Below, piece after piece: positions 26,301 through 59,223 of a stretch of DNA of 64,000 bases. Position numbers and translations under genes: made by a program. The notes below the pieces were generated by a model. The model had not been told where the DNA came from and searched no databases. It was given only the letters and a program-made list of their open reading frames with translations. How positions within the stretch are numbered: position 1 is the first letter of the stretch; every line of letters starts with the position of its first letter. This DNA comes from an uncultured Candidatus Saccharibacteria bacterium (GTDB taxonomy: Bacteria; Patescibacteriota; WWE3; 9FT-COMBO-53-11). The stretch lies in contig CAYGCK010000002.1 of NCBI GenBank assembly GCA_964348395.1, forward strand, positions 12,729 to 76,728, written 5' to 3'.

Positions 26301-26301
26301 T

Positions 26302-27665: not shown

Positions 27666-27802
27666 AATTTGATTATAACCCCAACAGCTGTGACGGCGTT
27701 CTTCTTGTCCCGTTTTTCTTTTTGATGAGACACTGCCGCGCGCCGCCCTTCCTATAAGATTGTATTGCCGAGCCTCCGGTTGCTAGTATTGAAACGGAAA
27801 TT

Positions 27803-28894: not shown

Positions 28895-28896
28895 TT

Positions 28897-30063: not shown

Positions 30064-31184
30064 CTCAAGAGAAAAAACTACCAATTCGTGCGGTCATAAC
30101 GGGAGGTCATCAAGACCCGGCTATCGCCGTTTTGCAGGAGCTGGAGAAGGAGGGTCGATTCGAGTTTCATTGGGTGGGGCAAAAAAATGAGGGGGGACAG
30201 GACGGTCCGTCTTTGGAATTTAGAACCGTAAGAAAGCTTGGCATTCCCTTTTATGACTTAAAAACCGGCAAGCTCTATAAGAGCTCAATTCTGGAGTGGG
30301 TGAAGATACCGTTTGGGTTTTTCCACGCTTTGTATCTGCTTTTTAGGATTAGGCCGCGAGTCGTCATATCCTTCGGCGGCTATATTGCGGCGCCCGTTGT
30401 TTTGGCGGCCTATACCTTAGGGATACCGTCGGTTACTCACGAGCAGACCGTAGTTTTGGGGTGGGCCAACCGCTTCATTTCGCTTTTCGCCAAAAAAATC
30501 TTCGTCTCTTGGGAAGAGTCATTAAAACACTTTCCTAAAGGTAAGACCGTCTTGACCGGTAATCCTGTTCGCCGGGCGGTGTTTGAGAAAAAAGTCAGAA
30601 GATTTGAGTTTAAAAACGACCTCCCAACGGTATACGTAACCGGAGGGAAGCGAGGAGCACACGTTATAAACGAGACGATAAGGGGAGCTTTGTCCACTTT
30701 TCTGGAGCGCTTCAACATCATTCATCAAACCGGCGCGTCTGAGGTTTTTCAGGATTATCAAAAACTACAACTTCTTAAAACCCAGCTCCCCAAAAAATTA
30801 CGGTCGCACTATATTGTTCAGGAGTTTTTTGGCTTGGACGAGATCGGCGCTGTTTTTGCCGCTTGTGACCTCATCGTCGGTCGCGCCGGTGCCAATACCG
30901 TAACCGAGCTAGCCGCTTTAGCAAAACCAGCCGTTCTTATCCCAATTCCTTGGGCTTCTCACAATGAACAGTATTTAAACGCCAAGCTTTTGTCCGCGCG
31001 GGGCGCAGTTTTAATACTCCCCGAGAGCGAGCTCTCCACGACCAATTTTTTGGAGGCGGTTTCTACGATAGTTTCCGATCTAGGTCGTTTCAGAAAGAGT
31101 GCTCGTAGCGCTAAAGGTCTTGTTAAACCCGACGCTGCAAGTCTTATAGCTCGCGGGATTAGGGAGCTGGTAGACTTAAGCTGA
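30060..31184 (+). CDS. murG: undecaprenyldiphospho-muramoylpentapeptide beta-N-acetylglucosaminyltransferase MurG
   Basis: VITGGHQDPAIAV..., GGYIAAPVVLAA and VTGGKRGAHVINE motifs (GT28). Confidence 0.85.
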   Translation: MTQEKKLPIRAVITGGHQDPAIAVLQELEKEGRFEFHWVGQKNEGGQDGPSLEFRTVRKLGIPFYDLKTGKLYKSSILEWVKIPFGFFHALYLLFRIRPRVVISFGGYIAAPVVLAAYTLGIPSVTHEQTVVLGWANRFISLFAKKIFVSWEESLKHFPKGKTVLTGNPVRRAVFEKKVRRFEFKNDLPTVYVTGGKRGAHVINETIRGALSTFLERFNIIHQTGASEVFQDYQKLQLLKTQLPKKLRSHYIVQEFFGLDEIGAVFAACDLIVGRAGANTVTELAALAKPAVLIPIPWASHNEQYLNAKLLSARGAVLILPESELSTTNFLEAVSTIVSDLGRFRKSARSAKGLVKPDAASLIARGIRELVDLS

Positions 31185-31966
31185 TGCGGCTTTTCCCATC
31201 AAGAAGAAGGCTGAAAACGCTTAGACGTTCTCCGAGGTTTTTCATTTCTGCCCCCACAGGTCGCCAAATTGTTGTGCCGTTTCGCCCCGTCTCGACCGTT
31301 TTGATTGTTGTTCTGGCTCTTCTTAGTGTCTTTCTCGCTCTTCGCTCGGATATCTTTCAGGTTAAGGCGCTTGAGTTTGAGCTTGAGGAGATTGCCGATG
31401 AAACCCTTGTGAGACAGCGGGTTATGGAAGAAGTCATGGGCCGAAGTATCTTTTTCTTAAACACCTCAAAAGTCGAGAACTCCATTAAGGGAGATTTCCC
31501 AACCATCAAAGAGGTTATTTTGGAGAAGAAACTTCCCGATGGACTCTACATTGCGGTAAACGTTCGGGTTCCGCTGGCCGTCGTTGAGGATAAGGATGGG
31601 GATAAATTCTTGGTGGATCAGGAGGGTTTTCTTTTTGAAGAAGGTGCCGGAGAGAATCTTCCGGTTATCAAGTTAGGGGGCGATTTTGACGGCGCGGTTG
31701 GTCTTTCTGTAAGTGATAAAGGAGTCCGCTCTTATCTGGAGACGCTCGAGCTTGCTGCGCAGAAAGGTTTTGTGGTTCGTGCTATTTATCTCAACTCTAC
31801 AACGATCGAACTTCGTCTTGAAGGGACGGTGGTTTGGCTTAGCGCTGAGGGAAAAATTTCCTCACAACTTGAGCTTCTGACGAACCTTCTCCAGCGCTAC
31901 AAACTAGGCGGAACGACCCCAAAATCGGTAGACCTTCGCTTCGCACGTCCTGTGGTTAGACTTTAG
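31184..31966 (+). CDS. ftsQ: cell division protein FtsQ/DivIB (POTRA)
   Basis: N-terminal TM then POTRA-like domain. Position between murG and ftsA. Confidence 0.7.
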   Translation: MRLFPSRRRLKTLRRSPRFFISAPTGRQIVVPFRPVSTVLIVVLALLSVFLALRSDIFQVKALEFELEEIADETLVRQRVMEEVMGRSIFFLNTSKVENSIKGDFPTIKEVILEKKLPDGLYIAVNVRVPLAVVEDKDGDKFLVDQEGFLFEEGAGENLPVIKLGGDFDGAVGLSVSDKGVRSYLETLELAAQKGFVVRAIYLNSTTIELRLEGTVVWLSAEGKISSQLELLTNLLQRYKLGGTTPKSVDLRFARPVVRL

Positions 31967-31998
31967 CCCGTACTCCTGCTGCTTATGATATTATTCGC

Positions 31999-33264
31999 TT
32001 GAGAAGTAAATCACGCGCCATGCCCAAAGAAAACATTGTTACAGGGATAGACGTCGGCTCTACCAAAATCTCAACCGTTATCTCCTCCTTATCACCCGAG
32101 AATAAAATCTCTGTAGTAGGGGTCTCAACTGTTCCTTCAAGAGGAATAAAAAAAGGCGTCGTTGTCGATATCGACGAGGCGGTCGAGGCTATAGCCGAGA
32201 GTTTGGAGCAAGCGGAACGTATGGCCGGGTATTCGGTTTCCTCGGCTTTTGTTGCGGTCGACGGGAAGCACATCTCCTCCCTCAACTCCCACGGCGTCGT
32301 CGCGGTTGGCGGTGAGGGGGCAGAGATAGCGGAAACAGATGTAGAGCGGGTGACGGAGGCGGCGCGTGCCGTATCGCTTCCTTCCTCTCGCGAGATCATC
32401 CATGTTTTGCCGCGGGGTTTCACCGTTGATTCCCAAGATGGGATAAAAGATCCGGTCGGAATGAGCGGAGTTCGCATGGAGGTAGAGACAAATATTATCT
32501 CCGGATCAACGACCGTGATGAGAAACTTGGTGAAGTGTATTCAGCACGTGGGGGTTGACGTCGAGGACTTGGTTTTTTGCGGTTTGGCCTCCTCCGAAGC
32601 GGTTCTTTCGGAGACGGAGAAAGAGCTTGGTTGTGCACTGGTTGATATAGGTGGGGAGACCACCCAAATTTTAATTTTTACCAACGGAAGTCCGGTTTAC
32701 GCCGCGGTTGTACCCTATGGAGGACAAAGTATCACCAATGATCTGGCGGTTGGACTTAGGGTATCGCTTGAGGATGCGGAGAGGATAAAACAGAAGCTTT
32801 CGAGCGAATCTTTGGCTAAGCAGGAGGAGAAGAAAGACGAAGTTGATATTTCAGAGTTGGGACTAGAGACTAAATCCATACCTCTTTCATTTGTTGAAAA
32901 CATAATTGAAGCTCGACTTTCCGAGGTCGTAAATATGATAGGGCTTGAGGTTAAAAACTCCGGACAGCAAGGTAACCTTCCCGCAGGTTTGATCATAACC
33001 GGTGGGGCGGTTGAAACCTTAAAACTCAAAGACACGGTTAAAAAACACCTTCGCCTCCCCTTGAGGATAGGGCGTCCCAAAGGGGTTTCCGGATTGATCG
33101 AAGAGGTATCAACCCCCGCCCACTCAACTTCCATAGGTCTTGTTCTTTACGGTTCATACGCAGGTCCTAAGGAGGGGCGCGTCGGATTACCGTCGGTGGA
33201 CCTGCGGCGGGTTTCCCAGGCATTTGGGAGGGTGATAGAATGGGGAAAGAGTTTCCTGCCCTAG
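31999..33264 (+). CDS. ftsA: cell division protein FtsA
   Basis: IVTGIDVGSTKISTVIS actin-fold phosphate-1 motif; VDIGGETT phosphate-2. Confidence 0.9.
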   Translation: MRSKSRAMPKENIVTGIDVGSTKISTVISSLSPENKISVVGVSTVPSRGIKKGVVVDIDEAVEAIAESLEQAERMAGYSVSSAFVAVDGKHISSLNSHGVVAVGGEGAEIAETDVERVTEAARAVSLPSSREIIHVLPRGFTVDSQDGIKDPVGMSGVRMEVETNIISGSTTVMRNLVKCIQHVGVDVEDLVFCGLASSEAVLSETEKELGCALVDIGGETTQILIFTNGSPVYAAVVPYGGQSITNDLAVGLRVSLEDAERIKQKLSSESLAKQEEKKDEVDISELGLETKSIPLSFVENIIEARLSEVVNMIGLEVKNSGQQGNLPAGLIITGGAVETLKLKDTVKKHLRLPLRIGRPKGVSGLIEEVSTPAHSTSIGLVLYGSYAGPKEGRVGLPSVDLRRVSQAFGRVIEWGKSFLP

Positions 33265-33306
33265 TGTATAAAATCCAAGCGTCGTATACTGTCCAAAAGT
33301 ATTCTC

Positions 33307-34362
33307 ATGCGCGTTAAACCACAAATAGAAAAAGCTGCGAACATAAAGGTCGTTGGTATGGGGGGTGCCGGCGGTAACGCCATAAACTCTATGATTAGAA
33401 ACCAGAAGATTCAGGGTGTTGAGTTTGTAGCGATTAATACGGACTCTCAGGCGCTCGCCTCCTCCGATGCCCCAGCTAAGATCCAAATTGGGGAGAAGAT
33501 CACCCGAGGCTTGGGTTCGGGGGGAAACCCGGAGGTTGGTCGCAAGGCCGCAGAGGAGTCCACCGAGATGTTAAAGGATAGAATGGATGGCGCGGATATG
33601 GTTTTTATAACGGCCGGTATGGGCGGAGGAACCGGGACGGGAGGGGGCCCTATTGTTGCGGAACTAGCGAAATCGCTTGGTGCTTTGACCGTCGGTGTCG
33701 TTACCAAACCTTTTGGATTTGAGGGCTCGCGTCGTATGGAAAACGCGGTTAAGGGTATCGAAGAATTGAGGGAAAAGGTAGACGCGCTGATTGTTATTCC
33801 CAACCAAAAACTTTTGGAAATTGTCGAGCGTAACATGTCTATTTTAGACGCATTTCGCCTGGCCGATTCGATTTTGGGACGGGCGGTTCAGGGTATTTCG
33901 GATCTTATTGTTATCCCGGGTTTGGTGAACGTTGATTTTGCTGATGTGCGCTCCATTATGACCAACGCAGGAAGTGCTCTTATGGGGATAGGGGAGGGGA
34001 GTGGAGAGGACAAGGCGGCCACAGCAGCGCGAGCGGCTGTTACTTCGCCTCTACTTGAAGTTTCGGTTGACGGTGCGATGGGAATTCTTCTGAATATTGT
34101 CGGAGGGGGCGACCTTGCTATGCATGAAGTCGATGAGGCCGCCCGACTTATTTCGGAGTCGGCCGACCCCAATGCGGATATCATTTTCGGGGCTTCGATT
34201 GACGAGGAGATGAAGGATGAGATCAAAATCACGGTGATAGCAACGGGGTTTACTCTCGGATCGTCTGAGGGTGGGAGCCCGAAGAAAGAAGAAAGAAAGG
34301 AGGAGTCGGAGGAATCCGACGAGTTCGAGGCTCCGGCTTTCTTGCGCCGAGGTAAACGTTAG
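33307..34362 (+). CDS. ftsZ: cell division GTPase FtsZ
   Basis: GGGTGTGGGPIVAELAK tubulin signature; NTDSQAL; acidic C-terminal tail. Confidence 0.95.
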   Translation: MRVKPQIEKAANIKVVGMGGAGGNAINSMIRNQKIQGVEFVAINTDSQALASSDAPAKIQIGEKITRGLGSGGNPEVGRKAAEESTEMLKDRMDGADMVFITAGMGGGTGTGGGPIVAELAKSLGALTVGVVTKPFGFEGSRRMENAVKGIEELREKVDALIVIPNQKLLEIVERNMSILDAFRLADSILGRAVQGISDLIVIPGLVNVDFADVRSIMTNAGSALMGIGEGSGEDKAATAARAAVTSPLLEVSVDGAMGILLNIVGGGDLAMHEVDEAARLISESADPNADIIFGASIDEEMKDEIKITVIATGFTLGSSEGGSPKKEERKEESEESDEFEAPAFLRRGKR

Positions 34363-34497
34363 CCAAGCTTGTCAAGTTTGTTCCGATATTTCTGGAGAGA
34401 ACGGATCTTGTATAGCGCTTTTTATTTATGGTAAGAGGTTAAAGATACGCTTATGACATAGCGCTATCCCCACTGCCCGTTTTTTGTTGCTCTTGAT

Positions 34498-47338: not shown

Positions 47339-47412
47339 GCGGGTATAGTTGAGTGGCTCAATGCCACCTTCCCAAGGTGGAGACACGGGTTCAATTCCCG
47401 TTACCCGCTCCA
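47339..47412 (+). tRNA. tRNA-Gly (anticodon CCC)
   Basis: Acceptor GCGGGTA/TACCCGC; anticodon arm CCACC-TTCCCAA-GGTGG; T-loop TTCAATT; CCA encoded. Starts 1 nt after tRNA-Asp. Confidence 0.85.
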
Positions 47413-47435
47413 AATTATTTCCTGTTACTATTTCA

Positions 47436-49214
47436 TTGGTGGAAGGTATCAAATTCTCAAATATCTCGATCGCAAAAGCGCTTAGTGAGGTCGCAGCGGC
47501 CTACGAGGTTAAGGGGGAGAACCGCTTTAAGATTAGAGCCTATAATACCGCGGCAGATTCTGTGGAGCACGCGACGAGCGAGGTTAAAGATCTTTGGGAG
47601 GAGGGCAAGCTCGACGAGTTACCAGGGATAGGGGAGAGCATTTCCTCTCACCTCGACGAATACTTTCGCACCGGGCGGGTGAAGCATTTTGAGGAAGTTA
47701 AAGAGGATCTCCCGGCCGGTATGTTTGAGATTTTCGGTCTTGAGGGGGTGGGTCCGAAGCGCGCTTTCCGTTTGTCCGAGGAACTCGGGGTAAAAAGCGT
47801 GGAGGGCTTATACAAAGCGGCGCAGGAGGGTAAGATAGCAGACCTTGAGGGGTTTGGAGAAAAGAGTCAGGAGCAGATAGTTAAGGCTATAGAGCGAAAA
47901 AGCAGAGAGCAGATGAGAACCCCACTGCCCATAGCGTTTTCTTTGGCGGAACGTCTTCTTGAGAAGATTCTAAAATTCCCCAGAGTTTCCCGTGCGGACC
48001 CTTTGGGATCCTTGAGAAGGATGGTCGCAACCGTCGGCGACGTCGATATCGGCGTTGCCACGACAAAGCCTGAGGAGACAATCGAACGTTTCGTCAAACT
48101 TCCCGAGGTGGGGAGGGTTCTGGCCGCTGGAGGTGCTAAGGCTTCGGTACTTCTCAAGACCGGCCAACAAGTCGATGTAAGAGCTCACGACCCAGAAAGC
48201 TACGGAGCGCTCTTGCAGTATTTCACCGGCTCCAAACAGCACAATATCCACCTTAGAAAAATTGCCAACGCCAAAGGATACACGCTTTCCGAATACGGCA
48301 TCGCCAAGTTCGCCAAAGGTAAAAAAGTAGGTGAGCCGCTGCCGGTTGATAGCGAAGAAGAGTTTTACCGCTTACTTGGTATGCCTTGGATTGCGCCTGA
48401 GCTTCGCGAGGATCAGGGTGAAATAGAGGCGGCTCAACGACAAGCTCAGGGTAAACCCGACAGGTTGCCGGAGCTTGTTGAGCTTAAGGATATTAAAGGT
48501 GAGGTACACGTCCACACCGACAACTCCCCGGATGGTGAGATTCCTGCCGAGGAGCTCGTCAAAAGGGCCGTGGGTCTAGGGTACGAGTTTATCGGTATCG
48601 CCGACCACTCTCCGTCGGTCCACACCCGCGGAAGGGAAGGTGCAAGGCGTGAGATATTAAAACGAAAAAAAGAGGTTGAAAGGTTGCGAAAGAAATTCAA
48701 AAGAAGGATCGAAATTTTTTTCGGAGCGGAAACCAATATAGACGCCACGGGAAAAATGGCGCTCCCCAACGAGCTTCTAAAGCTACATGAGTTTATAGTT
48801 GCCTCGATTCATACCTCCTTCGATCAACCCCGGAGCGAGATTACGCAGCGGCTGGTCTCGGCGCTCAGGAACCCGTACGTCAATATGATCGGCCACCCAA
48901 CTGGAAGACTCTTGACCATGCGCGAAGCTTACGAGGCCGACTGGGATAGGGTTTTCAAAATTACCAAGGAGGAGGGTAAGATTATGGAGATAAACGCTTA
49001 TCCGCTTCGATTAGATTTGCCTGACAGGATAGTAAAAACGGCAAAGGATATGGGTATTCCAATTGTTATAAGTACGGACGCGCATAGGGTGGAACACCTG
49101 GAGAATTTGAGATTCGGAGTGTCTGTCGCAAGGCGGGGATGGTGTGAGAAAAAGGATATTTTGACAACCCGCGGCGCTTCGGAATTTGCTAAACTTTTTA
49201 GGATAAGGAGGTGA
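47436..49214 (+). CDS. DNA polymerase X family protein with C-terminal PHP 3'-5' exonuclease/phosphoesterase domain (PolX)
   Basis: TTG/GTG start at 47436/47439, after tRNA-Gly. PolX helix-hairpin-helix N-terminus IAKALSEVAAAYEVKGENRFKIRAYNTAADSV. PHP motifs VHVHTDNSPDG...HTSF...STDAH. The long ATG frame from 47349 overlaps the tRNA. Confidence 0.8.
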   Translation: MVEGIKFSNISIAKALSEVAAAYEVKGENRFKIRAYNTAADSVEHATSEVKDLWEEGKLDELPGIGESISSHLDEYFRTGRVKHFEEVKEDLPAGMFEIFGLEGVGPKRAFRLSEELGVKSVEGLYKAAQEGKIADLEGFGEKSQEQIVKAIERKSREQMRTPLPIAFSLAERLLEKILKFPRVSRADPLGSLRRMVATVGDVDIGVATTKPEETIERFVKLPEVGRVLAAGGAKASVLLKTGQQVDVRAHDPESYGALLQYFTGSKQHNIHLRKIANAKGYTLSEYGIAKFAKGKKVGEPLPVDSEEEFYRLLGMPWIAPELREDQGEIEAAQRQAQGKPDRLPELVELKDIKGEVHVHTDNSPDGEIPAEELVKRAVGLGYEFIGIADHSPSVHTRGREGARREILKRKKEVERLRKKFKRRIEIFFGAETNIDATGKMALPNELLKLHEFIVASIHTSFDQPRSEITQRLVSALRNPYVNMIGHPTGRLLTMREAYEADWDRVFKITKEEGKIMEINAYPLRLDLPDRIVKTAKDMGIPIVISTDAHRVEHLENLRFGVSVARRGWCEKKDILTTRGASEFAKLFRIRR

Positions 49215-49220
49215 TATTTT

Positions 49221-49772
49221 TTGAATTGGATTTATATTGTTTTGGGAATCGTTGGCGCGCTAGGGATTTTTCTTTTTTGGCTCTATAACACCCTTGTTCG
49301 TTCCCGTACTCGGGTTGAAGAAGCCTGGAGCCATATCGACGTCCAGCTAAAGCGACGTGCGGATCTCATACCAAATTTGGTCGAGACGGTCAAGGGATAC
49401 GCCAAACACGAGAAGGGGGTTTTTGAGAATGTTACCAAAGCCCGTTCCGCCATACTTTCGGCCAAGACCGTTAAAGAGTCGGAGGATGCGGATAACATGC
49501 TAACCGGTGCCCTCAAAACACTTTTCGCGGTGGCTGAGAATTATCCCGAACTTAAGGCCTCAGAGAATTTCAAGGAGCTTCAGGATGAGCTTTCCGATAC
49601 GGAAAACAAGATCGCCTACGCCCGACAGTTCTACAACGGTAACGTTCGCGACTTTAACATTCTGATTAAGAGTTTTCCGAACGTGCTTCTCTCATCCGCG
49701 CTGGGATTCAAACCGGCTGAGTTCTTCGAAGCCGAGGCCGGTGAGCGGGAAAAGCCGGAGGTGAAGTTTTAG
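49221..49772 (+). CDS. lemA: LemA family protein
   Basis: N-terminal TM plus [44 protein letters not shown]. Confidence 0.85.
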
Positions 49773-49805
49773 GGTATAGCGACTAGGGTTTAGGGTATAG
49801 GAATG
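49770..49805. repeat. intergenic spacer made entirely of heptanucleotide repeats (TAGGGTA-like x5) from the lemA stop to the htpX start
   Basis: tagggta tagcgac tagggtt tagggta taggaATG. Each unit starts with TAG, so a stop is present in all three frames. Confidence 0.75.
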
Positions 49806-50678
49806 ACGCTTTACTCGCAAATCGCCGCCAATCGCCGCAGGACGTTCTTCTTGTTCTTTTTTACATTTCTGATAATTGTCGCGTTAGGCTATATTTTTGG
49901 GATTTATTTTGAAGACCCTTACTTTGGGGCTCTGGCGGCTTTTGTCTTCACTATTTTCTATTCTCTCTTTTCTTATTATTTCTCCTCCAGCATAGTTCTG
50001 GCGATTTCCGGCGCCAGACCAATTGATAAAAAGGATAATCCTTATCTTTATCGAATGGTCGAAAATTTGTGTATCGGTGCGGGATTGCCCAGACCTAAGA
50101 TCTACATCATTGAGGAGCAAGCGATGAACGCTTTCGCCACCGGTAGAGGTCCCAAAAATTCCGCTGTAGCGGTGACTAGAGGGTTACTCGAGAATTTAGA
50201 GAATGAGGAACTCGAGGGTGTTTTAGCCCACGAGCTTTCCCACATTCAAAATTATGACATTCGGATAATGACGCTGGCGGCCGTTATGGCCGGGGCGGTA
50301 GTGATGTTGGCGGATGTATTTTTGCGAAGCACCAGGTTTGGGAGCTCGCGAAGCCGTCGAGGGGCAGGGGGGGTTCTTATTCTTGTGGGGTTTCTCTTGG
50401 CGCTTCTTTCGCCGATTTTCGCCCAGCTAATCAAGCTGGCGATCTCCCGTCAGCGGGAGTTTTTGGCCGACTCCTCTGGTGCTCTTTTGACCCGCTATCC
50501 TGAAGGATTGGCTCGGGCGCTCGAGAAGATATCGGCCGATAAGACGCCTCTCAAGCACGTTTCGGAGGCGACGGCCCATCTTTATATCAAAAACCCATTA
50601 GGTAGGGGTTTTTGGTCAGGGCTTTTTGCCACCCATCCTCCGGTTGGGGAGAGAATAAGACGGCTTCGTGCGGTGTGA
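49803..50678 (+). CDS. htpX: M48-family zinc metalloprotease HtpX homologue
   Basis: Two N-terminal TM helices. HELSHIQNYD (HExxH) and the downstream E of the M48 motif. The LemA-HtpX pair is a common operon. Confidence 0.85.
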   Translation: MTLYSQIAANRRRTFFLFFFTFLIIVALGYIFGIYFEDPYFGALAAFVFTIFYSLFSYYFSSSIVLAISGARPIDKKDNPYLYRMVENLCIGAGLPRPKIYIIEEQAMNAFATGRGPKNSAVAVTRGLLENLENEELEGVLAHELSHIQNYDIRIMTLAAVMAGAVVMLADVFLRSTRFGSSRSRRGAGGVLILVGFLLALLSPIFAQLIKLAISRQREFLADSSGALLTRYPEGLARALEKISADKTPLKHVSEATAHLYIKNPLGRGFWSGLFATHPPVGERIRRLRAV

Positions 50679-50709
50679 CGGACCCTATGAGTTATGATAG
50701 TTTAAGAAG

Positions 50710-51003
50710 ATGCCGAAGTCTCCCAAACTCGATGTCAATTACGTTGCCCATCTTGCGCGTTTGCACCTAACACCTTCCGAAAAGAAGAGGTTCTCAAAGC
50801 AGCTCGAGGATGTTTTAGCTCACATAGAGCAGCTCTCCAAACTCGATTTATCCAAAGTTCCCCCGACCTTCCAGACCACCGGAGCAGGTGACGTGTTTCG
50901 CGACGACGAGGTTGACAAGAGGCGGACCCTGACGTCCCGTGCGGCTCTTTCTAACGCGGCGGCAAAGAAGGGTTCGTTTTTCCGTATTCCAAAAATCCTA
51001 TGA
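50710..51003 (+). CDS. gatC: Asp-tRNA(Asn)/Glu-tRNA(Gln) amidotransferase subunit C
   Basis: VNYVAHLARLHLTPSEKKRFSKQLEDVLAHIEQLSKLDLSKVPPT. Confidence 0.85.
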   Translation: MPKSPKLDVNYVAHLARLHLTPSEKKRFSKQLEDVLAHIEQLSKLDLSKVPPTFQTTGAGDVFRDDEVDKRRTLTSRAALSNAAAKKGSFFRIPKIL

Positions 51004-52406
51004 GCGATATCTTGAATCTCACTCTTAAAGAGCTTTCATCCGGGGTAAGAGAGGGACGATTTAGTGCTAGTGAAGTTTTGGAGGAGTTTGCTCGTGAGAT
51101 CGAAAGGAAGGAAAGCAAACTCCACGCTTTCATAAGTATTTTTCTTGAGGAGGCAAAGAAGCGCACAAGGGAAACGAAACGTGGGGGTCGGGGAAAGCTC
51201 TTGGGCGTACCACTCGCCGTAAAGGATAATATCGTAACCCGCGGACTCCGCACGACGGCGGGTTCAAAGATTATAGAAAATTTTATCCCTCAGTACGACG
51301 CAACCGTGGTCTCTAAGCTGCTGGGTGAGGGTGCGATTATTTTGGGTAAAACCAACATGGACGAGTTCGCTATGGGCTCCTCCACCGAAAACTCTGCCTT
51401 TGGGCCGACAAGAAATCCTTACGACCCCAAGCGTGTTCCTGGCGGCTCCTCTGGAGGGTCTGCAGCGGCCGTAGCTTCCCGTATGGTGCCCGCCGCGTTG
51501 GGTACTGATACTGGTGGATCTATCAAGCAGCCGGCGGCGTTTTGTGGGGTAGTGGGGCTGCGACCCACCTACGGGGCGGTGTCGCGTTATGGCGTTATTG
51601 CTTTGACCTCTTCTCTTGACCAGGTGGGGCCTTTGGCTCGCACCGTGGAGGATGTACGCTATCTTTTTTCGGTTATAAGAGGTAGGGATCTTTATGACGC
51701 TACTTCCTGGGAAAACCCAAACCCGACCGAGGGGGTCGAGATTAAAAACCTCCGGGTCGGGCTGCCTAAGGAGTATTTTACGAGCGGCGTTGAAAAGGGG
51801 ATTACCGACCGTATTGGGCAAGTAGCGAAATTTCTTGAAGGCCAGGGCGTTAAGGTTGAGGAAGTTTCTCTTCCGCATACCGAGTATGGAATAGCGGTTT
51901 ACTATATCATCACACCTTCTGAAGTGTCGACGAATTTATCGCGGTTTGACGGCATTCGGTTTGGGTTGCAGGTTCGGCAGAAAGATGTTATTTCTTTGGT
52001 TTCAAAATCCCGAGGGACTGGATTTGGGGAGGAGCCCAAAAGGAGAATTATTCTGGGTACCTTTGCCCTTTCCTCGGGTTACGCCGATAAGTACTACCTT
52101 CGCGCGGCCCGCGCCAGAACGTTAGTGGCGCGCGATTTTGAGCAGGTTTTTAAGAAGGTGGACGCCCTTTTGACACCTACCGCCCCAACAACCGCCTTTA
52201 AAATTGGGGAAAAGAAGGATCCCCTCTCGATGTATATGTCTGATATCTTCACCATTCCGGCGAACTTGGCTGGTTTGCCGGGCTTGTCTGTACCGGTGGG
52301 GGACGTCGGGGGGCTACCGGTTGGTGCGCAGCTTCTGGGACCGAAGTTTTCAGAAAACACGTTGTTTTCTCTCGGCGAGATTGTGGAGGGCGGAACATGG
52401 TCTTAG
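51000..52406 (+). CDS. gatA: Glu-tRNA(Gln)/Asp-tRNA(Asn) amidotransferase subunit A (amidase)
   Basis: Amidase signature GGSSGGSAAAVASRMVPAALGTDTGGSIKQPAAFCG. Confidence 0.9.
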   Translation: MSDILNLTLKELSSGVREGRFSASEVLEEFAREIERKESKLHAFISIFLEEAKKRTRETKRGGRGKLLGVPLAVKDNIVTRGLRTTAGSKIIENFIPQYDATVVSKLLGEGAIILGKTNMDEFAMGSSTENSAFGPTRNPYDPKRVPGGSSGGSAAAVASRMVPAALGTDTGGSIKQPAAFCGVVGLRPTYGAVSRYGVIALTSSLDQVGPLARTVEDVRYLFSVIRGRDLYDATSWENPNPTEGVEIKNLRVGLPKEYFTSGVEKGITDRIGQVAKFLEGQGVKVEEVSLPHTEYGIAVYYIITPSEVSTNLSRFDGIRFGLQVRQKDVISLVSKSRGTGFGEEPKRRIILGTFALSSGYADKYYLRAARARTLVARDFEQVFKKVDALLTPTAPTTAFKIGEKKDPLSMYMSDIFTIPANLAGLPGLSVPVGDVGGLPVGAQLLGPKFSENTLFSLGEIVEGGTWS

Positions 52407-52798
52407 ACTTTCTTTTCGGGAGAAAAGAAAAGAAGGTAGTAAGGACGACCGTGGGGGTGCTCAAGCCCTACGATAGGGATTATATAAAGGGGGAATGGAC
52501 CAGGGTCGAGGAGTTGGTTTCGACCGCCCGTCCTAGCGCTTTTAAGGAAGCGGTTATCTTGGCAGATAAACTTTTAGATTACGCGCTTGCACAAATTTCC
52601 TCGGGCGAGACCATGGGGGAGAGGTTAAAAAACGCCGCACCCGCTTTTTCTCGGGATATTTACCAAGGACTTTGGGACGCCCATAAGGCGCGAAACGCTC
52701 TGGTTCATGAGGCGCAATTTGATTTAACGACCGCTCTGGCAAAGGATGTTCTGGCTAAATTTAAGAAAGGCTTTATGGAGCTGGGGGTCAGAATATGA
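52397..52798 (+). CDS. hypothetical 133-aa protein inserted between gatA and gatB; C-terminal Rx4HE motif (HEPN-like?)
   Basis: GGAGGG RBS 7 nt upstream; overlaps the gatA stop and the gatB start (ATGA). Helical C-terminal half contains KARNALVHEAQF (R-x4-H-E). No confident family assignment. Confidence 0.55.
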   Translation: MVLDFLFGRKEKKVVRTTVGVLKPYDRDYIKGEWTRVEELVSTARPSAFKEAVILADKLLDYALAQISSGETMGERLKNAAPAFSRDIYQGLWDAHKARNALVHEAQFDLTTALAKDVLAKFKKGFMELGVRI

Positions 52799-54135
52799 GA
52801 AAACCGGAAACTGGAAACCGGAAACTGGAAACTGATTACCGACCCGTCATCGGACTGGAGGTCCACGTGCAGGCTAAGACCCGCTCGAAGATGTTTTGCG
52901 GGTGTCCTGCCGATACTTTTGGAAAAAAGCCCAACTCGGTCGTGTGTCCCGTTTGTCTGGGTTTGCCGGGGGCGATACCCGTTCCCAACAGGGCGGCTAT
53001 TGAGAAGACAATTGCTCTGGCCAAAGCTTTGGGGTGTCGGATAACCAAGTTCTCTCAATTCGAGCGCAAAAACTACTTTTATCCTGATTTGCCCAAGGGG
53101 TTTCAGATCAGCCAGTACGAACACCCTATCGGGGTTGAGGGTAAACTTCTAGGATTTGCGGTGAGCCGCGTCCATTTAGAGGAAGACACCGGCAAGCTTC
53201 TTCACGAGGGCGGGCAAACGTTTATTGACTTCAACCGTTCCGGCGTTCCGCTGGTTGAAATAGTGACCGAACCCGAATTCGAAGATCCGGCCCGGGTGTC
53301 CGAGTTTCTAAAGGAACTTCGACTTCTGGTCGTAAACGCCGACATCTCTGACGCCGATATGGAAAAAGGTTCTATGCGGCTTGAGGCCAACGTTTCGCTA
53401 AAGAAATCGGGGTCGAAAAAACTACCGGGCTACAAGGTCGAGCTCAAAAATATCAATTCCTTTGCTTTCCTTAAGAAAGCTCTCGAGGTTGAAATAGAAC
53501 GACAAGGTAAGCTTCTAAAAAGCGGGAAACAACCTCACCAGGAAACCCGCGGGTTTGACCCCAAGCGCGGAGTGACGGTAGCGCAGCGCACTAAAGAGGA
53601 GGCGTTTGACTACCGGTATTTCCCCGAACCGGACATCCCGCCGTTGGAGAAAATCTTAGTTCAAAAAGTTACGCGGACAAAGACAATTACTGCAGATGCC
53701 ATACTTGTGGAATCGCCAGAAAAGATTCGCGAGAAGTATCGCTCTCAAGGCCTCTCGGCTCAATACACCGAGGTCTTAGTTGGAAATCCTAAGTTGGCGA
53801 GGATTTTTGAGGAGGTGAGTGCCAAAATTCCGGCGGATGAGGCGGCAAACATCATAGTAAACAGGCGGTTTGGTGATCCTCTTCGACTCGGCGTCAAAAA
53901 ACTCATAGCGGCTTATGAGAAGGAGAGGAAAAAAGAAGTTTTATCCGGGGATAAACTTTTACCCACCGCCAAACGCGTAGTCGCCGACAACCCGCGTGCG
54001 GTTTCCGACTACAGACAAGGGAAAACCGCCGCTTTAAAGTTTCTTTTGGGACAGCTTATGAGGGAAACCGACGGTAAAATGGATCCTAAGGTGGGAGAGT
54101 TGATACTCAAGAAACTTTGCGATGCCAGAACTTAA
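52795..54135 (+). CDS. gatB: Asp-tRNA(Asn)/Glu-tRNA(Gln) amidotransferase subunit B
   Basis: YRPVIGLEVHVQ...MFCGC N-terminal core; GatB/YqeY C-terminal domain. There is a 13-aa N-terminal extension encoded by heptad repeats. Confidence 0.9.
   Translation: MRKPETGNRKLETDYRPVIGLEVHVQAKTRSKMFCGCPADTFGKKPNSVVCPVCLGLPGAIPVPNRAAIEKTIALAKALGCRITKFSQFERKNYFYPDLPKGFQISQYEHPIGVEGKLLGFAVSRVHLEEDTGKLLHEGGQTFIDFNRSGVPLVEIVTEPEFEDPARVSEFLKELRLLVVNADISDADMEKGSMRLEANVSLKKSGSKKLPGYKVELKNINSFAFLKKALEVEIERQGKLLKSGKQPHQETRGFDPKRGVTVAQRTKEEAFDYRYFPEPDIPPLEKILVQKVTRTKTITADAILVESPEKIREKYRSQGLSAQYTEVLVGNPKLARIFEEVSAKIPADEAANIIVNRRFGDPLRLGVKKLIAAYEKERKKEVLSGDKLLPTAKRVVADNPRAVSDYRQGKTAALKFLLGQLMRETDGKMDPKVGELILKKLCDART
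52801..52835. repeat. heptanucleotide tandem repeat (AAACCGG/AAACTGG)x5 in the gatB 5' coding leader
   Basis: aaaccgg aaactgg aaaccgg aaactgg aaactga immediately after the ATG, encoding KPETGNRKLETD. Confidence 0.8.
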
Positions 54136-55912
54136 ACTCCTTGAGGAGAAAACTAGCTACGAGCTAATAGAAAGCCGGGACAGGATGGGAGAGGTTGTTA
54201 CCGAGCTGAAAAAAATCCCCACCTTGGCTGTGGATTTGGAGGGAACGAGTCTAGACCCTCATAAAGCAAATCTCCTGCTTTTCCAGGTAGCTACTCCAGG
54301 GAAAGCTTATATTTTTGACGCGCGAAGGGTCGATCTGACACCTTTGGCCGATATCCTATCTAGTAAAAAAATATTGAAAATAGCTCAAAACGCAAAGTTC
54401 GATTACGGTATGCTTATGGCTCAAACCGGTATGGAGCTTGCAAACATATTCGATACGTTTTTGGCGGAACGAGTTCTTACTACTGGGATCTCCAGGGAAA
54501 ACTCACTTGAAGCTATTGCGCAAAAGTATCTGGGGGTGCAGCTTGAAAAACAGGTTCGCGAAACCTTTATGAAACACACACGAGAGTTTTCCAAGAAACA
54601 ACTGGAGTACGCGGCGGCTGACGTTTTGGTTCTCTTTCCAATTTATGAGGTACAGAAGAAATCACTTAAGAAAGAAGGACTCGAGGATATTGCTAAGGTC
54701 GAGTTCGATCTGGTCCCTACGGTTGCTGAGATGGAGCTTAGAGGCTTTATGGTTGACGTTAAAAAATGGCGAGAGGTGATCGAAGATTACAAGAAAAAAG
54801 CCGTGGAGATTGATCAAAAGATACAAAATGACTTGAGACCGCACTTTGCGCATAGTCAGAAGGATCTCTTTGGAAACCACGCGGACGTCGTCAACCTAAA
54901 CTCGCCCGCCCAAATCCTCAACGCTTTTCGGAAGGTGGGGCTCGACCTTCCTTCAACGGGGGAAGGGATACTTTCCCAGTACGACCATCCTTTGGCGAAG
55001 CTACTTCTTGAATACCGCAAATACGAGAAAATCATAACCGCGTTTGGGGAGAATTTGCTCTCCAAAATCGATAAAAAAACCGGGCGGGTACACCCCGATT
55101 ACATGCAAATTGGGGCGGATACTGGGAGGTTTGCCTGCTCTAACCCAAACCTTCAGCAGATTCCTGCCGACTCGCTTTTTCGCGGTTGTTTCATCGCGCC
55201 TAAGGGCTATAAACTCGTCGTCGCGGACTACTCCCAAATTGAGCTTCGCATTCTAGCCGAGTTGTCGCGCGATTCGGTTTTCGTTGAGGCTTTTAAGAAG
55301 GATCAGGACCTTCATACCCTAACCGCCTCGCAAATGTTTGGAGTTCCGATTGAAAAAGTCGATAAGGGAAAGAGATTTCAGGCCAAATCGATAAACTTCG
55401 GTTTGATGTACGGACGAGGCGCGCACTCGTTAGCCGTACAGCTTGGGGTTTCGGATGATGAAGCGAGGAAACTCCTAGATCGCTACTTTAAAAAATACAG
55501 TAGAGTTAGGAGCTGGCTTGACAGGGTAGCAAAAGAGGCGGTTCGTCTGGGGTATAGCAAAACCATAGGCGGTCGCAAGAGATACTATCAGCGGATTAAC
55601 CCAGGGGATCCCGGATATGAAAGACAGGTTGCTTATATTGAACGGCAAGGCAAGAACACGCCGATTCAAGGGACGTCGGCCGATATGACCAAGGTGGCCT
55701 TGGTTTACGTACGCGATAGAATAAAAAAGGAAGGTTTGGATTCCACACCTATACATACCGTGCACGACGAGATTGTAGTTGAGGCAAAAGAAGGACAGGC
55801 AAAGAAAACTGCTAAGATTTTATCTGAGGAGATGATGCGAGCAGGGAAGAAATTCTTAAAAGTAGTTCCGGTAAAGGTAGACGTGGTTGTTTCTGATATT
55901 TGGGAGCATTAG
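54122..55912 (+). CDS. polA: DNA polymerase I-like (family A) with 3'-5' exonuclease domain, no 5'-3' nuclease domain
   Basis: 596 aa. Exo motif LAVDLEG / YAAADV. Pol motifs A-C (…RFQAKSINFGLMYG…, VHDEIVVE). Confidence 0.8.
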   Translation: MPELKLLEEKTSYELIESRDRMGEVVTELKKIPTLAVDLEGTSLDPHKANLLLFQVATPGKAYIFDARRVDLTPLADILSSKKILKIAQNAKFDYGMLMAQTGMELANIFDTFLAERVLTTGISRENSLEAIAQKYLGVQLEKQVRETFMKHTREFSKKQLEYAAADVLVLFPIYEVQKKSLKKEGLEDIAKVEFDLVPTVAEMELRGFMVDVKKWREVIEDYKKKAVEIDQKIQNDLRPHFAHSQKDLFGNHADVVNLNSPAQILNAFRKVGLDLPSTGEGILSQYDHPLAKLLLEYRKYEKIITAFGENLLSKIDKKTGRVHPDYMQIGADTGRFACSNPNLQQIPADSLFRGCFIAPKGYKLVVADYSQIELRILAELSRDSVFVEAFKKDQDLHTLTASQMFGVPIEKVDKGKRFQAKSINFGLMYGRGAHSLAVQLGVSDDEARKLLDRYFKKYSRVRSWLDRVAKEAVRLGYSKTIGGRKRYYQRINPGDPGYERQVAYIERQGKNTPIQGTSADMTKVALVYVRDRIKKEGLDSTPIHTVHDEIVVEAKEGQAKKTAKILSEEMMRAGKKFLKVVPVKVDVVVSDIWEH

Positions 55913-55960
55913 CAGAGGAGCTTTGACTTTGCTAAGGTGTTCAACTAAAATTCTAAAGGA

Positions 55961-58027
55961 ATGATTTGCCAAAATTGTGGAAAAAGACAAGCGGTTTTTC
56001 AGACCCACCATCTCGTTGATGGTCGGCCCACCATAATTTATCTTTGTGAGGTATGTGCCGAAGAGGTTCGCTCTGGAGGTCGGCGGACCTCGACGCTAGA
56101 TCGTTACGGACGAAACATCTCCGCCTTGGCAGAGAAGGGTAAGCTCGATCCGGTGATTGGGAGGGGGGAGGAGATTAATCGTGTAATCCATGTTCTCTCC
56201 AGAAGAACCAAGAACAACCCCGTTTTGATAGGGGACCCAGGAGTCGGCAAGACCGCAATTGTGGAGGGGTTAGCGCAAAGAATTATTGAAGGCAACGTCC
56301 CAGAACCTTTGCTTGGGAAGAGAATAGTAGCCCTCGATCTTGCTCTTATGCTTGCCGGCGCATCCCACCGCGGGGAATTTGAGGAGCGTATGAAGAAAGC
56401 AATTGAGGAGGTTACCGCTGCCCGTGGTGAGATAGTTCTTTTTATAGACGAGCTTCATACGGTAGTTGGGGCGGGTGCGGCGCAAGGTGCAATCGACGCC
56501 TCCAATATGCTTAAACCCCCGCTTGCCCGAGGTGAGCTCCAGTGTATTGGCGCAACCACACTTGACGAGTATCGACGGTATATCGAAAAAGATGGTGCCT
56601 TGGAACGGCGTTTCCAGCCGGTCATGGTCACGGAACCGACGCAGGGGGAGACCCTCGATATTTTGCGCGGTCTTAGGCCAAATTACGAGGACCATCATAG
56701 GGTGCGTTTAACCGATGGTGCGCTAGGTGCTGCGGTTGAACTTTCCGACCGCTACATTACCGACCGTTTTCTTCCCGATAAGGCCATCGACCTTTTGGAT
56801 GAAACCTCCGCCAAAAAGCGTTTGGAATCCGTCGGTTACACATCTAATAATAAGGCGGATAAAATCTCCGAAGAGCTTACGCGGTTAAAGGGTAAATCAC
56901 GCAAGACCTTGGCCGAAATGGAGCGTATCGAAGAGTTAACCGCACTAAAAGGTGGACAAGTAGATGAGCAGGAGCTTGCGCTTGAGAATATTCCCGAGGT
57001 TACCGCCCAAGACGTTGCTAAAACTGTGTCTAAGATTACCGGGATTCACGTTGAGGATATATCAACCGACGAGAGGAAACGCCTCATGGATCTTGAGAAG
57101 AAACTCCACGAACGGATCGTTGGGCAGGATGAGGCCGTGAAGGCCGTCTCATCTGCCATCAGACGCGCACGCGCAGGGCTTAAGGATCCAAACCGACCGG
57201 TTGGTTCGTTTATCTTTCTTGGTCCAACCGGGGTTGGAAAAACGGAACTTGCTAAGGCTCTTGCCGAAGCGCTTTACGGAGATGAGGATTCGATGGTCAG
57301 GTTGGATATGTCAGAATACGCGGAGCGCCATACCGTCTCTCGGATGATCGGTTCTCCTCCTGGGTATGTGGGGTACGAGGACGCCGGACAACTTACGGAG
57401 GCTGTTCGCCGGAAACCCTTCTCGGTTGTACTTTTTGATGAAATCGAAAAAGCGCATCCCGAGGTCTTTAACATTCTCCTCCAAATTCTGGAGGATGGGC
57501 GTTTGACCGACGCTCACGGACGGACGGTCGATTTCAAAAATACGGTTTTAATCATGACTTCAAATGTTGGAACTAGCGCGATATCTGCTAAGGCGGTTGG
57601 GTTCGGCGAGGGCGCTAAAAAGAAGGATTACGAGGAGCTTAAAGAAGGGCTTCTAGGGGATCTCCAAAAGAGCTTTAGACCAGAATTCTTAAACAGAATA
57701 GACGAGATAATTGTCTTTCACCCTCTAAGTGAGAAGCATGTTAGGAAGATCGCAGACATTCTCATCGAAAGGAGCAAAAAACTTCTGGAATCCCAAGGAA
57801 TAAGCTTGGACGTAACAAAAAGAGCGCGAAACTTTCTTGCCGAGCGCGGTTTTGATCCAGAGCTAGGAGCCCGTCCTCTAAAGCGCTTGATCCAAAAAGA
57901 GATAGAAAACCCAATTTCAAACGGAATAGTTTCGGGTGACTACAGGAAAGGGGACACGGTTGGATTTGACTTTACGGGTGGTAAAACAACCTTTCAGATC
58001 AAAAAGCGCGTCCCCGTAAAGGTTTAG
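55961..58027 (+). CDS. clpC: Clp/Hsp100 double-AAA+ unfoldase (ClpC/ClpA-like) with N-terminal ClpX-type C4 zinc ribbon in place of Clp_N repeats
   Basis: N-terminus [11 protein letters not shown]...[11 protein letters not shown]1 Walker [17 protein letters not shown]2 Walker [23 protein letters not shown] loop. 688 aa. Confidence 0.8.
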
Positions 58028-58030
58028 AGG

Positions 58031-58375
58031 ATGGAAAAAAAGCCCAAAGCCAAAAAGAAAAAAGAAGTTAAAAAGCCCAAAGTCCAAGAACCCGGGGAGG
58101 GATACAGGCCGGGGGACGTTGTGCGAGTTAGTTTCAAGGTGAGGGAGGAGGGAAAGGAAAGGGTCCAACCCTTTGAGGGTATCTTGATTGCAAAACGCGG
58201 CGAGGGACCCTCCAAGACAATTACCGTCAGAAAGATGGGGACTGCGGGGGTGGGTGTGGAGCGTATTTTTCCTGTTAATTCCCCCAAGGTTGAAAAGATT
58301 GAGGTGGTCAAGAAAGGTAAAACACGCCGCGCTAAATTATATTTCGTTCGAGAAAAACCAACACTTAAGGTTTAG
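58031..58375 (+). CDS. rplS: 50S ribosomal protein L19
   Basis: [61 protein letters not shown], with a Lys-rich N-terminal extension. Confidence 0.9.
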
Positions 58376-58379
58376 TAAA

Positions 58380-59006
58380 GTGGGTCCAAGGATTCCCAAC
58401 TTTTCCTTTGAAAAGAAATTATGGAATAGGGGGTTGCAGCGTGTGGCCGGGGTTGATGAGGCAGGACGCGGCGCTTTGGCCGGATCTCTTTTTGCCTCAG
58501 CGGTTGTCTTTCCGCCAAACGTGCGTCTTAAGATAAAACCTCGCGATTCAAAAAGACTTTCCCCCAAGAAGCGCATTGAACTTGCGGGTTTCGTAAAGGA
58601 TAAAGCTTACTTTTGGTCGGTTTCCTCGGTTGGGGTTGGCTTTATCGATAAGTTCGGGATGGCCAAAGCCGGTCGGGAGGCGATGAAGAAGGCGCTCGAA
58701 GATCTCTCCGGCGTACCTGAGTTTGTGTTGGTGGACTACTACAAACTTCCTTTTTGGCCAAAAGAGAATCAGCTTTCTATCAAATTTGGCGACAACACTT
58801 CTTCCTCTATTGCTGCGGCTTCCATCCTGGCCAAGGTGGCGAGGGATGAGATGATGGTTGACCTGGCCGAAAAATATCCGCAGTATGGTTTTGACCTCCA
58901 CAAGGGTTACGGGACCGCTCGGCACCGGGAAGCGCTGTTGGAGTACGGTCCTTGCGAAATCCACAGGAAAAGTTTTATCGGGTCAATAGTTACCGCCGAG
59001 CGCTAG
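58380..59006 (+). CDS. rnhB: ribonuclease HII
   Basis: GTG at 58380 just after the rplS stop. VAGVDEAGRGALAGSLFASAVVF motif. The longer ORF from 58188 overlaps rplS. Confidence 0.85.
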   Translation: MGPRIPNFSFEKKLWNRGLQRVAGVDEAGRGALAGSLFASAVVFPPNVRLKIKPRDSKRLSPKKRIELAGFVKDKAYFWSVSSVGVGFIDKFGMAKAGREAMKKALEDLSGVPEFVLVDYYKLPFWPKENQLSIKFGDNTSSSIAAASILAKVARDEMMVDLAEKYPQYGFDLHKGYGTARHREALLEYGPCEIHRKSFIGSIVTAER

Positions 59007-59072: not shown

Positions 59073-59147
59073 TGGTGGCCCCAAGGGGAATCGAACCCCT
59101 GTTTCCGCCTTGAAGGGGCGGTGTCCTATCCGTTAGACGATGGGGCC
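59073..59147 (-). tRNA. tRNA-Glu (anticodon TTC)
   Basis: Reverse complement GGCCCCATCGTCTAACGGATAGGACACCGCCCCTTCAAGGCGGAAACAGGGGTTCGATTCCCCTTGGGGCCACCA. Confidence 0.85.
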
Positions 59148-59148
59148 A

Positions 59149-59223
59149 TGGTAGGTCCGGAGGGAATCGAACCCTCGACACCCGGCTTAAAAGGCCGGTG
59201 CTCTACCACTGAGCTACGGACCT
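59149..59223 (-). tRNA. tRNA-Lys (anticodon TTT)
   Basis: Reverse complement AGGTCCGTAGCTCAGTGGTAGAGCACCGGCCTTTTAAGCCGGGTGTCGAGGGTTCGATTCCCTCCGGACCTACCA. Confidence 0.85.

Follow-up and report, generated by a model that had tools for sequence, protein, structure and literature searches.

The stretch of DNA analysed here, called the window, comprises 64,000 nucleotides of the contig CAYGCK010000002.1 from an uncultured Candidatus Saccharibacteria bacterium. Its clp gene is genuine and codes for a Clp unfoldase that has two rings and a small N-terminal zinc-type domain. A four-cysteine domain is carried directly by a ClpC-like two-ring body in which the ATPase motifs are intact, the M-domain (middle domain) is short and a [VILF]-G-F loop is conserved. 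The association of a zinc domain, a ClpC-like body and a VGF tripeptide is the published, defining architecture of ClpE (PMC8635124, PMC13125188). The window protein is a compact ClpE-like variant found in Patescibacteria, and it is this variant which is new: it is conserved, is devoid of two elements of ClpE, the NC subdomain and the M-domain tip motif, and has a histidine in the D1 pore loop (D1 and D2 designate the rings formed by AAA1 and AAA2). The protein is 100% identical to a protein (P0001) encoded on WVZC01000267.1 of the assembly GCA_011772635.1, also labelled Candidatus Saccharibacteria bacterium. The gene and its upstream surroundings are as follows.

54122..55912: polA-like gene, ending 48 nucleotides (nt) before the clp start
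55913..55960, + strand: polA–clp spacer of 48 nt, with a Shine-Dalgarno-like AAGGA just 5' of the ATG and a promoter-like TTGACT-17-TAAAAT at 55923-55951
55961..58027, + strand: complete clp gene, 688-residue ClpE-like class-I Hsp100/Clp ATPase (uninterrupted open reading frame, Pfam domains)

The N-terminal zinc domain

The ATG at 55961 is the first start codon past the upstream in-frame stop and the polA-like gene ends at 55912, so that no Clp_N repeat can be concealed upstream. The original prediction had likewise seen no misassigned start, but it had placed the 48-nt spacer on the rplS side; this spacer lies on the polA side and rplS begins 3 nt past the clp stop (58031). Start calling is error-prone in the family, some homologues beginning at an internal methionine (e.g. 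P0034-P0038, P0078-P0089), but an artefact is next to impossible here, since a mis-called start hiding Clp_N is contradicted by these two boundaries and by dozens of homologues on independent contigs sharing the M-x-C start, and a chance occurrence of the cysteines by the invariance of the four Cys, A11 and G21 in the alignments. The features of the domain are the following.

55961..56080, + strand: zinc domain, residues 1-40, of the ClpG-N1 / ClpE-NN / McsA-NTD type (NTD, N-terminal domain; profile, hhalign and AlphaFold2, AF2)
55967..55978, + strand: first predicted zinc knuckle, C3-Q-N-C6 (44 of 44 homologues)
56045..56056, + strand: second predicted zinc knuckle, C29-E-V-C32, at a helix N-terminus (44 of 44 homologues)

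In a full-length alignment of 44 diverse homologues, which is the source of the conservation counts given in this text, C3, C6, A11, G21, C29 and C32 show no variation, and R9 and Q14 hardly any. All 33 true genomic matches of the pattern described below likewise have the four cysteines. The AF2 model of the domain (predicted local distance difference test, pLDDT, of 84) is composed of a knuckle, a beta-hairpin (residues 13-19 and 22-28) and a helix (30-39) that opens with the second CxxC; these elements recur in the model of the full-length protein. The zinc-containing fold ranked best as a match for the domain is ClpG N1.

These similarities place the domain, as judged from profile comparisons, in the ClpG-N1 / ClpE-NN / McsA-NTD family and not specifically in the ClpX type. 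The profile of the family N-termini recovered from the PDB McsA (residues 3-37, E 8.3e-10), ClpE (residues 1-42, E 3.7e-6) and the N1 domain of ClpG/ClpK (8p66, E 3.7e-3), and a mixed profile recovered the same three proteins with E-values of 1.5e-17, 5e-17 and 7e-6, respectively. With hhalign, ClpE/McsA-type N-termini were aligned at 99% (E 5e-18) over 41 gapless columns. The closest sequence match to residues 1-36 is the N-terminal zinc motif of McsA, the activator of the arginine kinase McsB (PDB 8wtb), with a profile E-value of 8e-10, 43% identity by tblastn and identical knuckle positions and spacing. The two knuckles are separated by 22 residues in the window protein, ClpE and McsA (22-23 across the family) and by 18 in ClpX. 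In contrast to this C4 arrangement, ClpG has C/C/C/H ligands and a spacing shorter by one residue.

The original prediction had described the domain as ClpX-type, with a match expected to the profile of the ClpX zinc-binding domain (ZBD). The four-Cys zinc-type domain is retained but its ClpX character is not. That a ClpX ZBD, a dimerising treble-clef which docks SspB/YjbH-like adaptors, was transplanted onto a ClpC body appears very improbable. Some resemblance exists, as both are N-terminal C4 domains in which a helix starts at the second CxxC, and ClpX is, like ClpE, a ClpP partner; the NTD of ClpE was called homologous to that of ClpX in a review (PMC5506225). A tblastn alignment with E. 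coli ClpX spans the gene start (residues 9-189, E 0.006), and the Pfam model zf-C4_ClpX (PF06689) touches 2 of 19 family N-termini (best E 0.04) and the McsA N-terminus (E 0.02-0.04 overall). However, the hhalign comparison with four ClpX ZBD sequences reached 47% (pairwise E 1.9e-4) over 29 columns only and needed two gaps, and no ClpX ZBD was found in the PDB at E<=10 by the family profile that finds McsA, ClpE and ClpG N1 significantly. The domain gives no significant match to the ClpX ZBD in sequence or in structure, the ClpX hairpin is shorter, ClpX has a single AAA+ ring, and its hallmarks (CSFCGK, AGP, YICDEC) are not conserved in the family, except for the G-K/R following the first knuckle. 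Since the published descriptions of the ClpE NTD include this homology to ClpX (PMC5506225), the architecture that had been predicted is essentially that of textbook ClpE; what was unusual about it is the shortened form specific to Patescibacteria, not the fusion as such.

The ClpG-N1 / ClpE-NN / McsA-NTD zinc domain is not recognized above threshold by any Pfam-A model. Residues 1-60 searched alone gave generic zinc-ribbon matches, all sub-threshold, and the most consistent match, DUF7685 (E 4e-6 to 0.05), stays below its cut-off for the N-termini of ClpE, of McsA and of the proteins from the candidate phyla radiation (CPR) alike. The proteins are consequently labelled "AAA domain-containing protein" or "ClpC".

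In Enterococcus faecalis ClpE, Cys3, Cys6, Cys29 and Cys32 bind Zn2+, as measured, and mutation of C29/C32 lowers zinc occupancy; the NTD is divided into NN (residues 1-46), which is conserved and resembles ClpG N1 by homology and by structure, and NC (47-81), which is variable and disordered (PMC13125188). ClpG N1 binds aggregates through Val17 and Leu21 of its first strand, and the N-termini of ClpE and McsA were noted as homologous to it (PMC10641755). In the window protein, the residue aligned with Val17 is Thr15, beside the near-invariant Gln14, and the equivalents of Leu21 and Val15 are Val19 and Phe13, respectively. Q14 and T15 of the strand, like the hydrophobic positions 12, 13, 18 and 19, are conserved beyond the needs of folding, which is compatible with a binding surface.

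The two-ring body compared with other Clp ATPases

Downstream of the zinc domain, the following features were identified, the motif residues of AAA1 being invariant in the homologue alignment.

56081..56095, + strand: linker of 5 residues (41-45) leading directly from the zinc domain to AAA1 (C32–LDxYGR spacing)
56096..56812, + strand: AAA1 module, residues 46-284 (Pfam AAA and AAA_lid_9)
56231-56254, + strand: AAA1 Walker A, GDPGVGKT
56354..56383, + strand: D1 pore loop, residues 132-141, non-canonical, with Ser135-His136 replacing Lys-Tyr
56435-56458, + strand: AAA1 Walker B
56597-56617, + strand: AAA1 Arg-finger region
56813..56986, + strand: M-domain, short coiled coil, about residues 285-342 (helix to 310, loop 311-316, helix 317-342; full-length AF2 model)
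56987..57724, + strand: AAA2 module, residues 343-588 (Pfam AAA_2)
57221-57244, + strand: AAA2 Walker A, GPTGVGKT
57356-57376, + strand: AAA2 pore loop, PPGYVGY
57425-57454, + strand: AAA2 Walker B
57569..57622, + strand: flexible surface loop, residues 537-554 (pLDDT <50 in the AF2 model)
57596-57604, + strand: predicted ClpP-docking tripeptide V546-G547-F548, aligned with the VGF of Bacillus subtilis ClpC
57686-57703, + strand: AAA2 Arg finger
57725..57961, + strand: C-terminal D2-small domain, residues 589-667 (Pfam ClpB_D2-small)
57866-57880, + strand: sensor-2, GARPL

Pfam recognizes in the 688 residues the domains AAA (88-191), AAA_lid_9 (228-321), AAA_2 (412-583, E 8e-70) and ClpB_D2-small (589-667, E 2e-25), and gives no match for Clp_N (PF02861), UVR (PF02151) or the ClpX zinc finger (PF06689). 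In a search of solved structures, the body is matched best by B. subtilis ClpC (778 bits, residues 157-801), then by ClpB and ClpC1, E. faecalis ClpE reaching 667 bits. The double-ring ClpC-like unfoldase, the missing Clp_N repeats and the short middle region had all been predicted, and the three claims agree with these results. None of the NCBIfam equivalogs for ClpB, ClpA, ClpK, ClpG, ClpV and ClpX reaches its cut-off on the protein; the values are of 729 and 759 bits for ClpG and ClpK (NF033607 / NF033606; cut-offs of 1900) and of 937 bits for ClpB (TIGR03346; cut-off of 1232), the latter match being in two pieces.

K427, D493, E494, Y469 and R579 are invariant in the homologues, as are the Walker, Arg-finger and sensor residues. 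At position 136 of the D1 pore loop, histidine is found in 31 homologues, tyrosine in 8 and valine in 5. Elsewhere this loop reads AG(T/S)K(Y/F)RGEFE in ClpC-type proteins and GTGIRGQFE in ClpE of Lactobacillales. The D1 loops without Lys-Tyr, together with the invariant tyrosine of the D2 GYVG loop, suggest that D1 contributes little grip both in the window-type family and in ClpE. The tripeptide of the flexible loop is [VFIL]-G-F in 39 of the 44 homologues, and [I/M/L/V]GF in AAA2 is described as the ClpP-interaction motif (PMC8635124, PMC13125188).

The window protein shares with E. faecalis ClpE (PDB 29hb) the cysteines at positions 3, 6, 29 and 32, the absence of Clp_N, two AAA+ modules with intact Walker A and B motifs, Arg fingers and D2 GYVG loop, a single ClpC-type coiled-coil M-domain of 104 residues between anchors, the VGF loop and a D1 pore loop that departs from the canonical Lys-Tyr. 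It differs first by the absence of the NC subdomain (ClpE 47-81, about 35 residues, including Phe52/Phe54): C32 and LDxYGR are separated by only 13 residues in 72 of 77 family members, a distance that leaves no place for NC, and residue 40 of the query aligns to residue 98 of E. faecalis ClpE, i.e. about 58 extra residues in ClpE. Secondly, the tip of the M-domain (region of E373/F375 in ClpE) is deleted. The tip motif (E/D)[FY]ExAAxxRD falls in a 9-column gap around residue 321 of the window protein, whose closest relatives share the deletion. The motif serves M-M contacts and adaptor docking in ClpC and ClpE, and in ClpE contacts between hexamers are mediated by E373/F375. The UVR signature (PF02151), detected in the ClpE and ClpC matches, is lacking in the window protein and in P0001-P0090. 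More distant CPR members have a different insert at the site of the tip. Thirdly, His136 of the D1 loop is replaced by Ile in ClpE. The identity to ClpE in the common region is of 48% (59% to the ClpC type), the window-type family is found in Patescibacteria and ClpE in Bacillota, and the window gene lies between polA and rplS and has no CtsR operator, whereas clpE is monocistronic and CtsR-repressed.

ClpC (B. subtilis and Staphylococcus aureus ClpC, Mycobacterium tuberculosis ClpC1) has in common with the window protein the AAA+ body, the VGF loop and the single coiled-coil M-domain. The M-domain of the window protein is 8 residues shorter between anchors (104 versus 112 in ClpC) and has no tip motif, and the D1 pore loop is non-canonical. 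The protein has no Clp_N repeats and thus no docking site for phosphoarginine, MecA or ClpS. As was proposed originally, the recognition of substrates and adaptors must differ from that of ClpC, because Clp_N is replaced by the four-Cys zinc domain. ClpG/ClpK, the stand-alone disaggregase of Pseudomonas aeruginosa which works without ClpP, has an extra N2 (Clp_N-like) domain and a C-terminal extension, whereas the N1-like domain of the window protein is not followed by N2. ClpB has a long M-domain (about 120 residues) and no ClpP loop, in contrast to the short M-domain and the VGF of the window protein.

Distribution, phylogeny and gene neighbourhood

Among the best 120 database relatives, about 90 have a length of 650-714 residues and the same C-x2-C-x22/23-C-x2-C N-terminus, and come from the candidate division WWE3, CPR1 and "Patescibacteria group" bacteria; the relatives without the zinc segment begin at an internal methionine and resemble mis-called starts. 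A survey of the architecture, which had been proposed with the original prediction, was realized with the degenerate DNA pattern CxxC-13-LDx[YF]GR-10-LDPV[IV]GR, in which the spacing between the second knuckle and the first AAA1 helices is fixed, in 185,579 species (one genome each). By design, this pattern misses ClpE, of which the linker is longer, and also, by estimate, one in five of the known family members. It recovered 34 matches, of which 33 are metagenome-assembled genomes (MAGs) of Patescibacteria (WWE3, "Saccharibacteria", "Patescibacteria group"); both knuckles are present in all 33, and the complete proteins have 682-704 residues. The exact fusion was thus found in Patescibacteria only. 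The 34th match, from a Clostridia MAG (L015), was rejected: it is an ordinary ClpC with Clp_N, and the CxxC in its linker is incidental.

The zinc domain itself is widespread. The N-domain profile recovered 4,807 clusters (50% identity) at E<=1e-3 among 1.84 billion representatives; among the best 150 of these, almost every protein is short and has the domain at residue 1, in keeping with McsA-like proteins and fragments. A 42-column N-domain profile used against the protein database gave 9 short fragments only. Four proteins of 873-905 residues from unclassified "[bacterium]" MAGs (P0095, P0096, P0103 and P0104) carry the same zinc domain, followed by Clp_N, UVR and a canonical ClpC body with a KY pore loop; this order is that of ClpG N1 and N2, but the core is ClpC-like. 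In two long-read assemblies similar to E. faecalis (loci L002 and L003), the clpE N-terminus is called as a separate reading frame of 56 residues. Both contain the same frameshift after about codon 45 and further indels, probably a homopolymer sequencing error, yet one common to several assemblies.

The phylogenetic sample was composed of 48 sequences and 546 gap-poor columns. ClpE is represented in it by partial proteins only (up to 576 residues, from the pore loop to the C-terminus), obtained by a search with a 329-residue ClpE D2 fragment. The mean identities are of 0.59 between CPR and ClpC-type sequences, 0.48 between CPR and ClpE and 0.53 between ClpC and ClpE. In an unrooted neighbour-joining tree (200 bootstraps), the CPR sequences and ClpE are split from all Clp_N-bearing ClpC-like proteins with a value of 83%, both being long branches in a tree without outgroup. 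This split is compatible with a single origin of the form with a zinc domain and no Clp_N. Published accounts confine ClpE to selected Gram-positive bacteria and regard the role of its conserved zinc subdomain as still unclear (PMC8635124, PMC13125188), and no published link between ClpE and CPR/Patescibacteria was found in our literature search.

The clp gene belongs to a row of housekeeping genes (polX, lemA, M48 peptidase, gatC-gatA-gatB, polA-like, clp, rplS; window positions about 47349-59006), and the same row is found in a Patescibacteria MAG (locus L004) of which the Clp protein is 60% identical. The promoter-like sequence of the spacer matches 10 of 12 positions, but such matches occur in the region at chance frequency; its -10 element ends 10 nt 5' of the ATG and abuts the AAGGA. 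The operator search found no CtsR operator near the gene, the matches being at chance level. The polA-like gene is devoid of the 5'-3' exonuclease domain, its L004 copy containing only the Pfam 3'-5' exonuclease and polymerase domains. Adjacent genes for tRNA-Glu(ttc) and tRNA-Lys(ttt) lie at 59073-59223 (- strand), about 1 kb downstream of the clp-rplS-rnhB row. Elsewhere, the window contains a large glycosyltransferase/polysaccharide cluster (1957-24500) and a complete dcw-type division cluster with mraZ, rsmH, ftsL, a PBP gene, mraY, ftsW, murG, ftsQ, ftsA and ftsZ (24500-34400).

Concerning partner genes, no CLP_protease, ClpS or McsB gene is present in three annotated loci tiling nearly the whole window. 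Neither clpP nor clpS gave a tblastn match in the window or in 34 related 8-kb loci, a search made with E. coli queries in these regions of the genome only, and E. coli ClpX gave in the window only weak alignments to the clp gene itself. In the rest of the window, no gene for a proteostasis partner is present other than that of the M48 (HtpX-like) peptidase beside lemA.

Proposed function of the compact ClpE-like protein

We favour, with a probability of about 0.7, the reading of the window protein as a compact ClpE-like Hsp100 of WWE3-type Patescibacteria, in which a zinc NN domain is mounted on a two-ring motor likely coupled to ClpP. ClpE-ClpP of E. faecalis is an autonomous protease and disaggregase, targeted through its NTD (PMC13125188). 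By analogy, the window protein would bind zinc, form hexamers and participate in proteolysis. The four cysteines would hold one Zn2+ and keep the hairpin-helix domain folded, as in E. faecalis ClpE and P. aeruginosa ClpG. Six zinc domains above the AAA1 ring would help to capture non-native proteins without an adaptor of the MecA/McsB/ClpS type, the invariant GYVG pore loop of D2 would do most of the substrate threading, and the VGF loops would dock ClpP, where the substrate would be degraded. The retention of [VILF]-G-F in 39 of 44 diverse homologues argues for a selection on ClpP docking. If zinc were lost, for instance through oxidation of the thiols, the domain would unfold and the activity would change. 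The linker of 5 residues may let the zinc domain serve partly as a gate over the pore.

Several observations weigh against this reading. NC with Phe52/Phe54, crucial for the degradation of aggregates by E. faecalis ClpE (PMC13125188), is missing, and the equivalent of ClpG Val17 is Thr15, flanked by Gln14. The gene is neither monocistronic nor controlled by CtsR, unlike clpE. Neither the 64-kb window nor any of the 34 related 8-kb loci contains clpP, clpS or clpX; clpP does occur in at least one CPR member, TM7x. Finally, the CPR clade is less identical to ClpE than to the ClpC type, and its grouping with ClpE unites the two long branches of the unrooted tree. With NC, the M-tip motif and the hydrophobic equivalent of Val17 missing or changed, the substrate range and the control of assembly, as well as the regulation, probably differ from those of ClpE.

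A mainly regulatory zinc domain is unlikely. The domain would be a redox- or zinc-sensitive cap gating access to the AAA1 pore, close to which it would sit since the linker has only 5 residues; upon oxidation it would be unfolded and clipped, and the activity switched. The loss of zinc in E. faecalis ClpE leads to autoprocessing of residues 1-35 and to an altered activity profile, and the deletion of NC blocks the degradation of CtsR, which the authors explain by a less mobile NN obstructing the pore (PMC13125188); the window protein is a natural "delta-NC" form. The basal ATPase activity of ClpG rises upon loss of N1 (PMC10641755), and a role as sensors of oxidative stress was proposed for the zinc sites of ClpE, ClpX and McsA (PMC8635124, PMC5506225). 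However, the conservation of Q14, T15 and the hydrophobic positions 12/13/18/19 exceeds what folding needs and fits a binding surface, and regulation and binding are not mutually exclusive.

It is rather unlikely that the protein is a stand-alone disaggregase or unfoldase of the ClpG/ClpL type, in which the N1-like domain would target aggregates without ClpP and the VGF would be a relic or of occasional use. The homology of the N-domain to the aggregate-targeting N1 of ClpG (PMC10641755) and the efficient refolding of aggregated malate dehydrogenase by E. faecalis ClpE alone (PMC13125188) are in agreement with such a function, which the Thr at the position of Val17, the ClpG and ClpK scores far below their cut-offs and the retention of [VILF]-G-F speak against. 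One Hsp100 could fill several jobs in the reduced CPR genomes. No clpP was seen in the window or beside the 34 homologous genes, but this absence is little informative, because clpP seldom adjoins clpC or clpE in other bacteria. TM7x has this gene.

The possibility of a minimal, adaptor-free "core ClpE" in WWE3-type Patescibacteria, a zinc NN domain fixed directly to the motor and stripped of NC (aggregate targeting) and of the M-tip (control of self-assembly), is considered decidedly doubtful. This form could then represent the ancestral state of the ClpE/ClpG-N1 targeting module common to CPR and Bacillota, or the protein could be the only class-I Hsp100 of the lineage, a general-purpose unfoldase with or without ClpP in which a polar Q-T-Q recognition strand would have a new specificity.

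The Patescibacteria variant does not overturn the current understanding of Clp proteases. As a compact ClpE-like protein, it adds organisms whose genomes are very reduced to the range of the ClpG-N1 / ClpE / McsA domain family, and the proteins now labelled "AAA domain-containing protein" or "ClpC" could be annotated as ClpE-like. This natural clade without NC and without M-tip could help to separate the role of the zinc domain from those of the linker and the M-domain.

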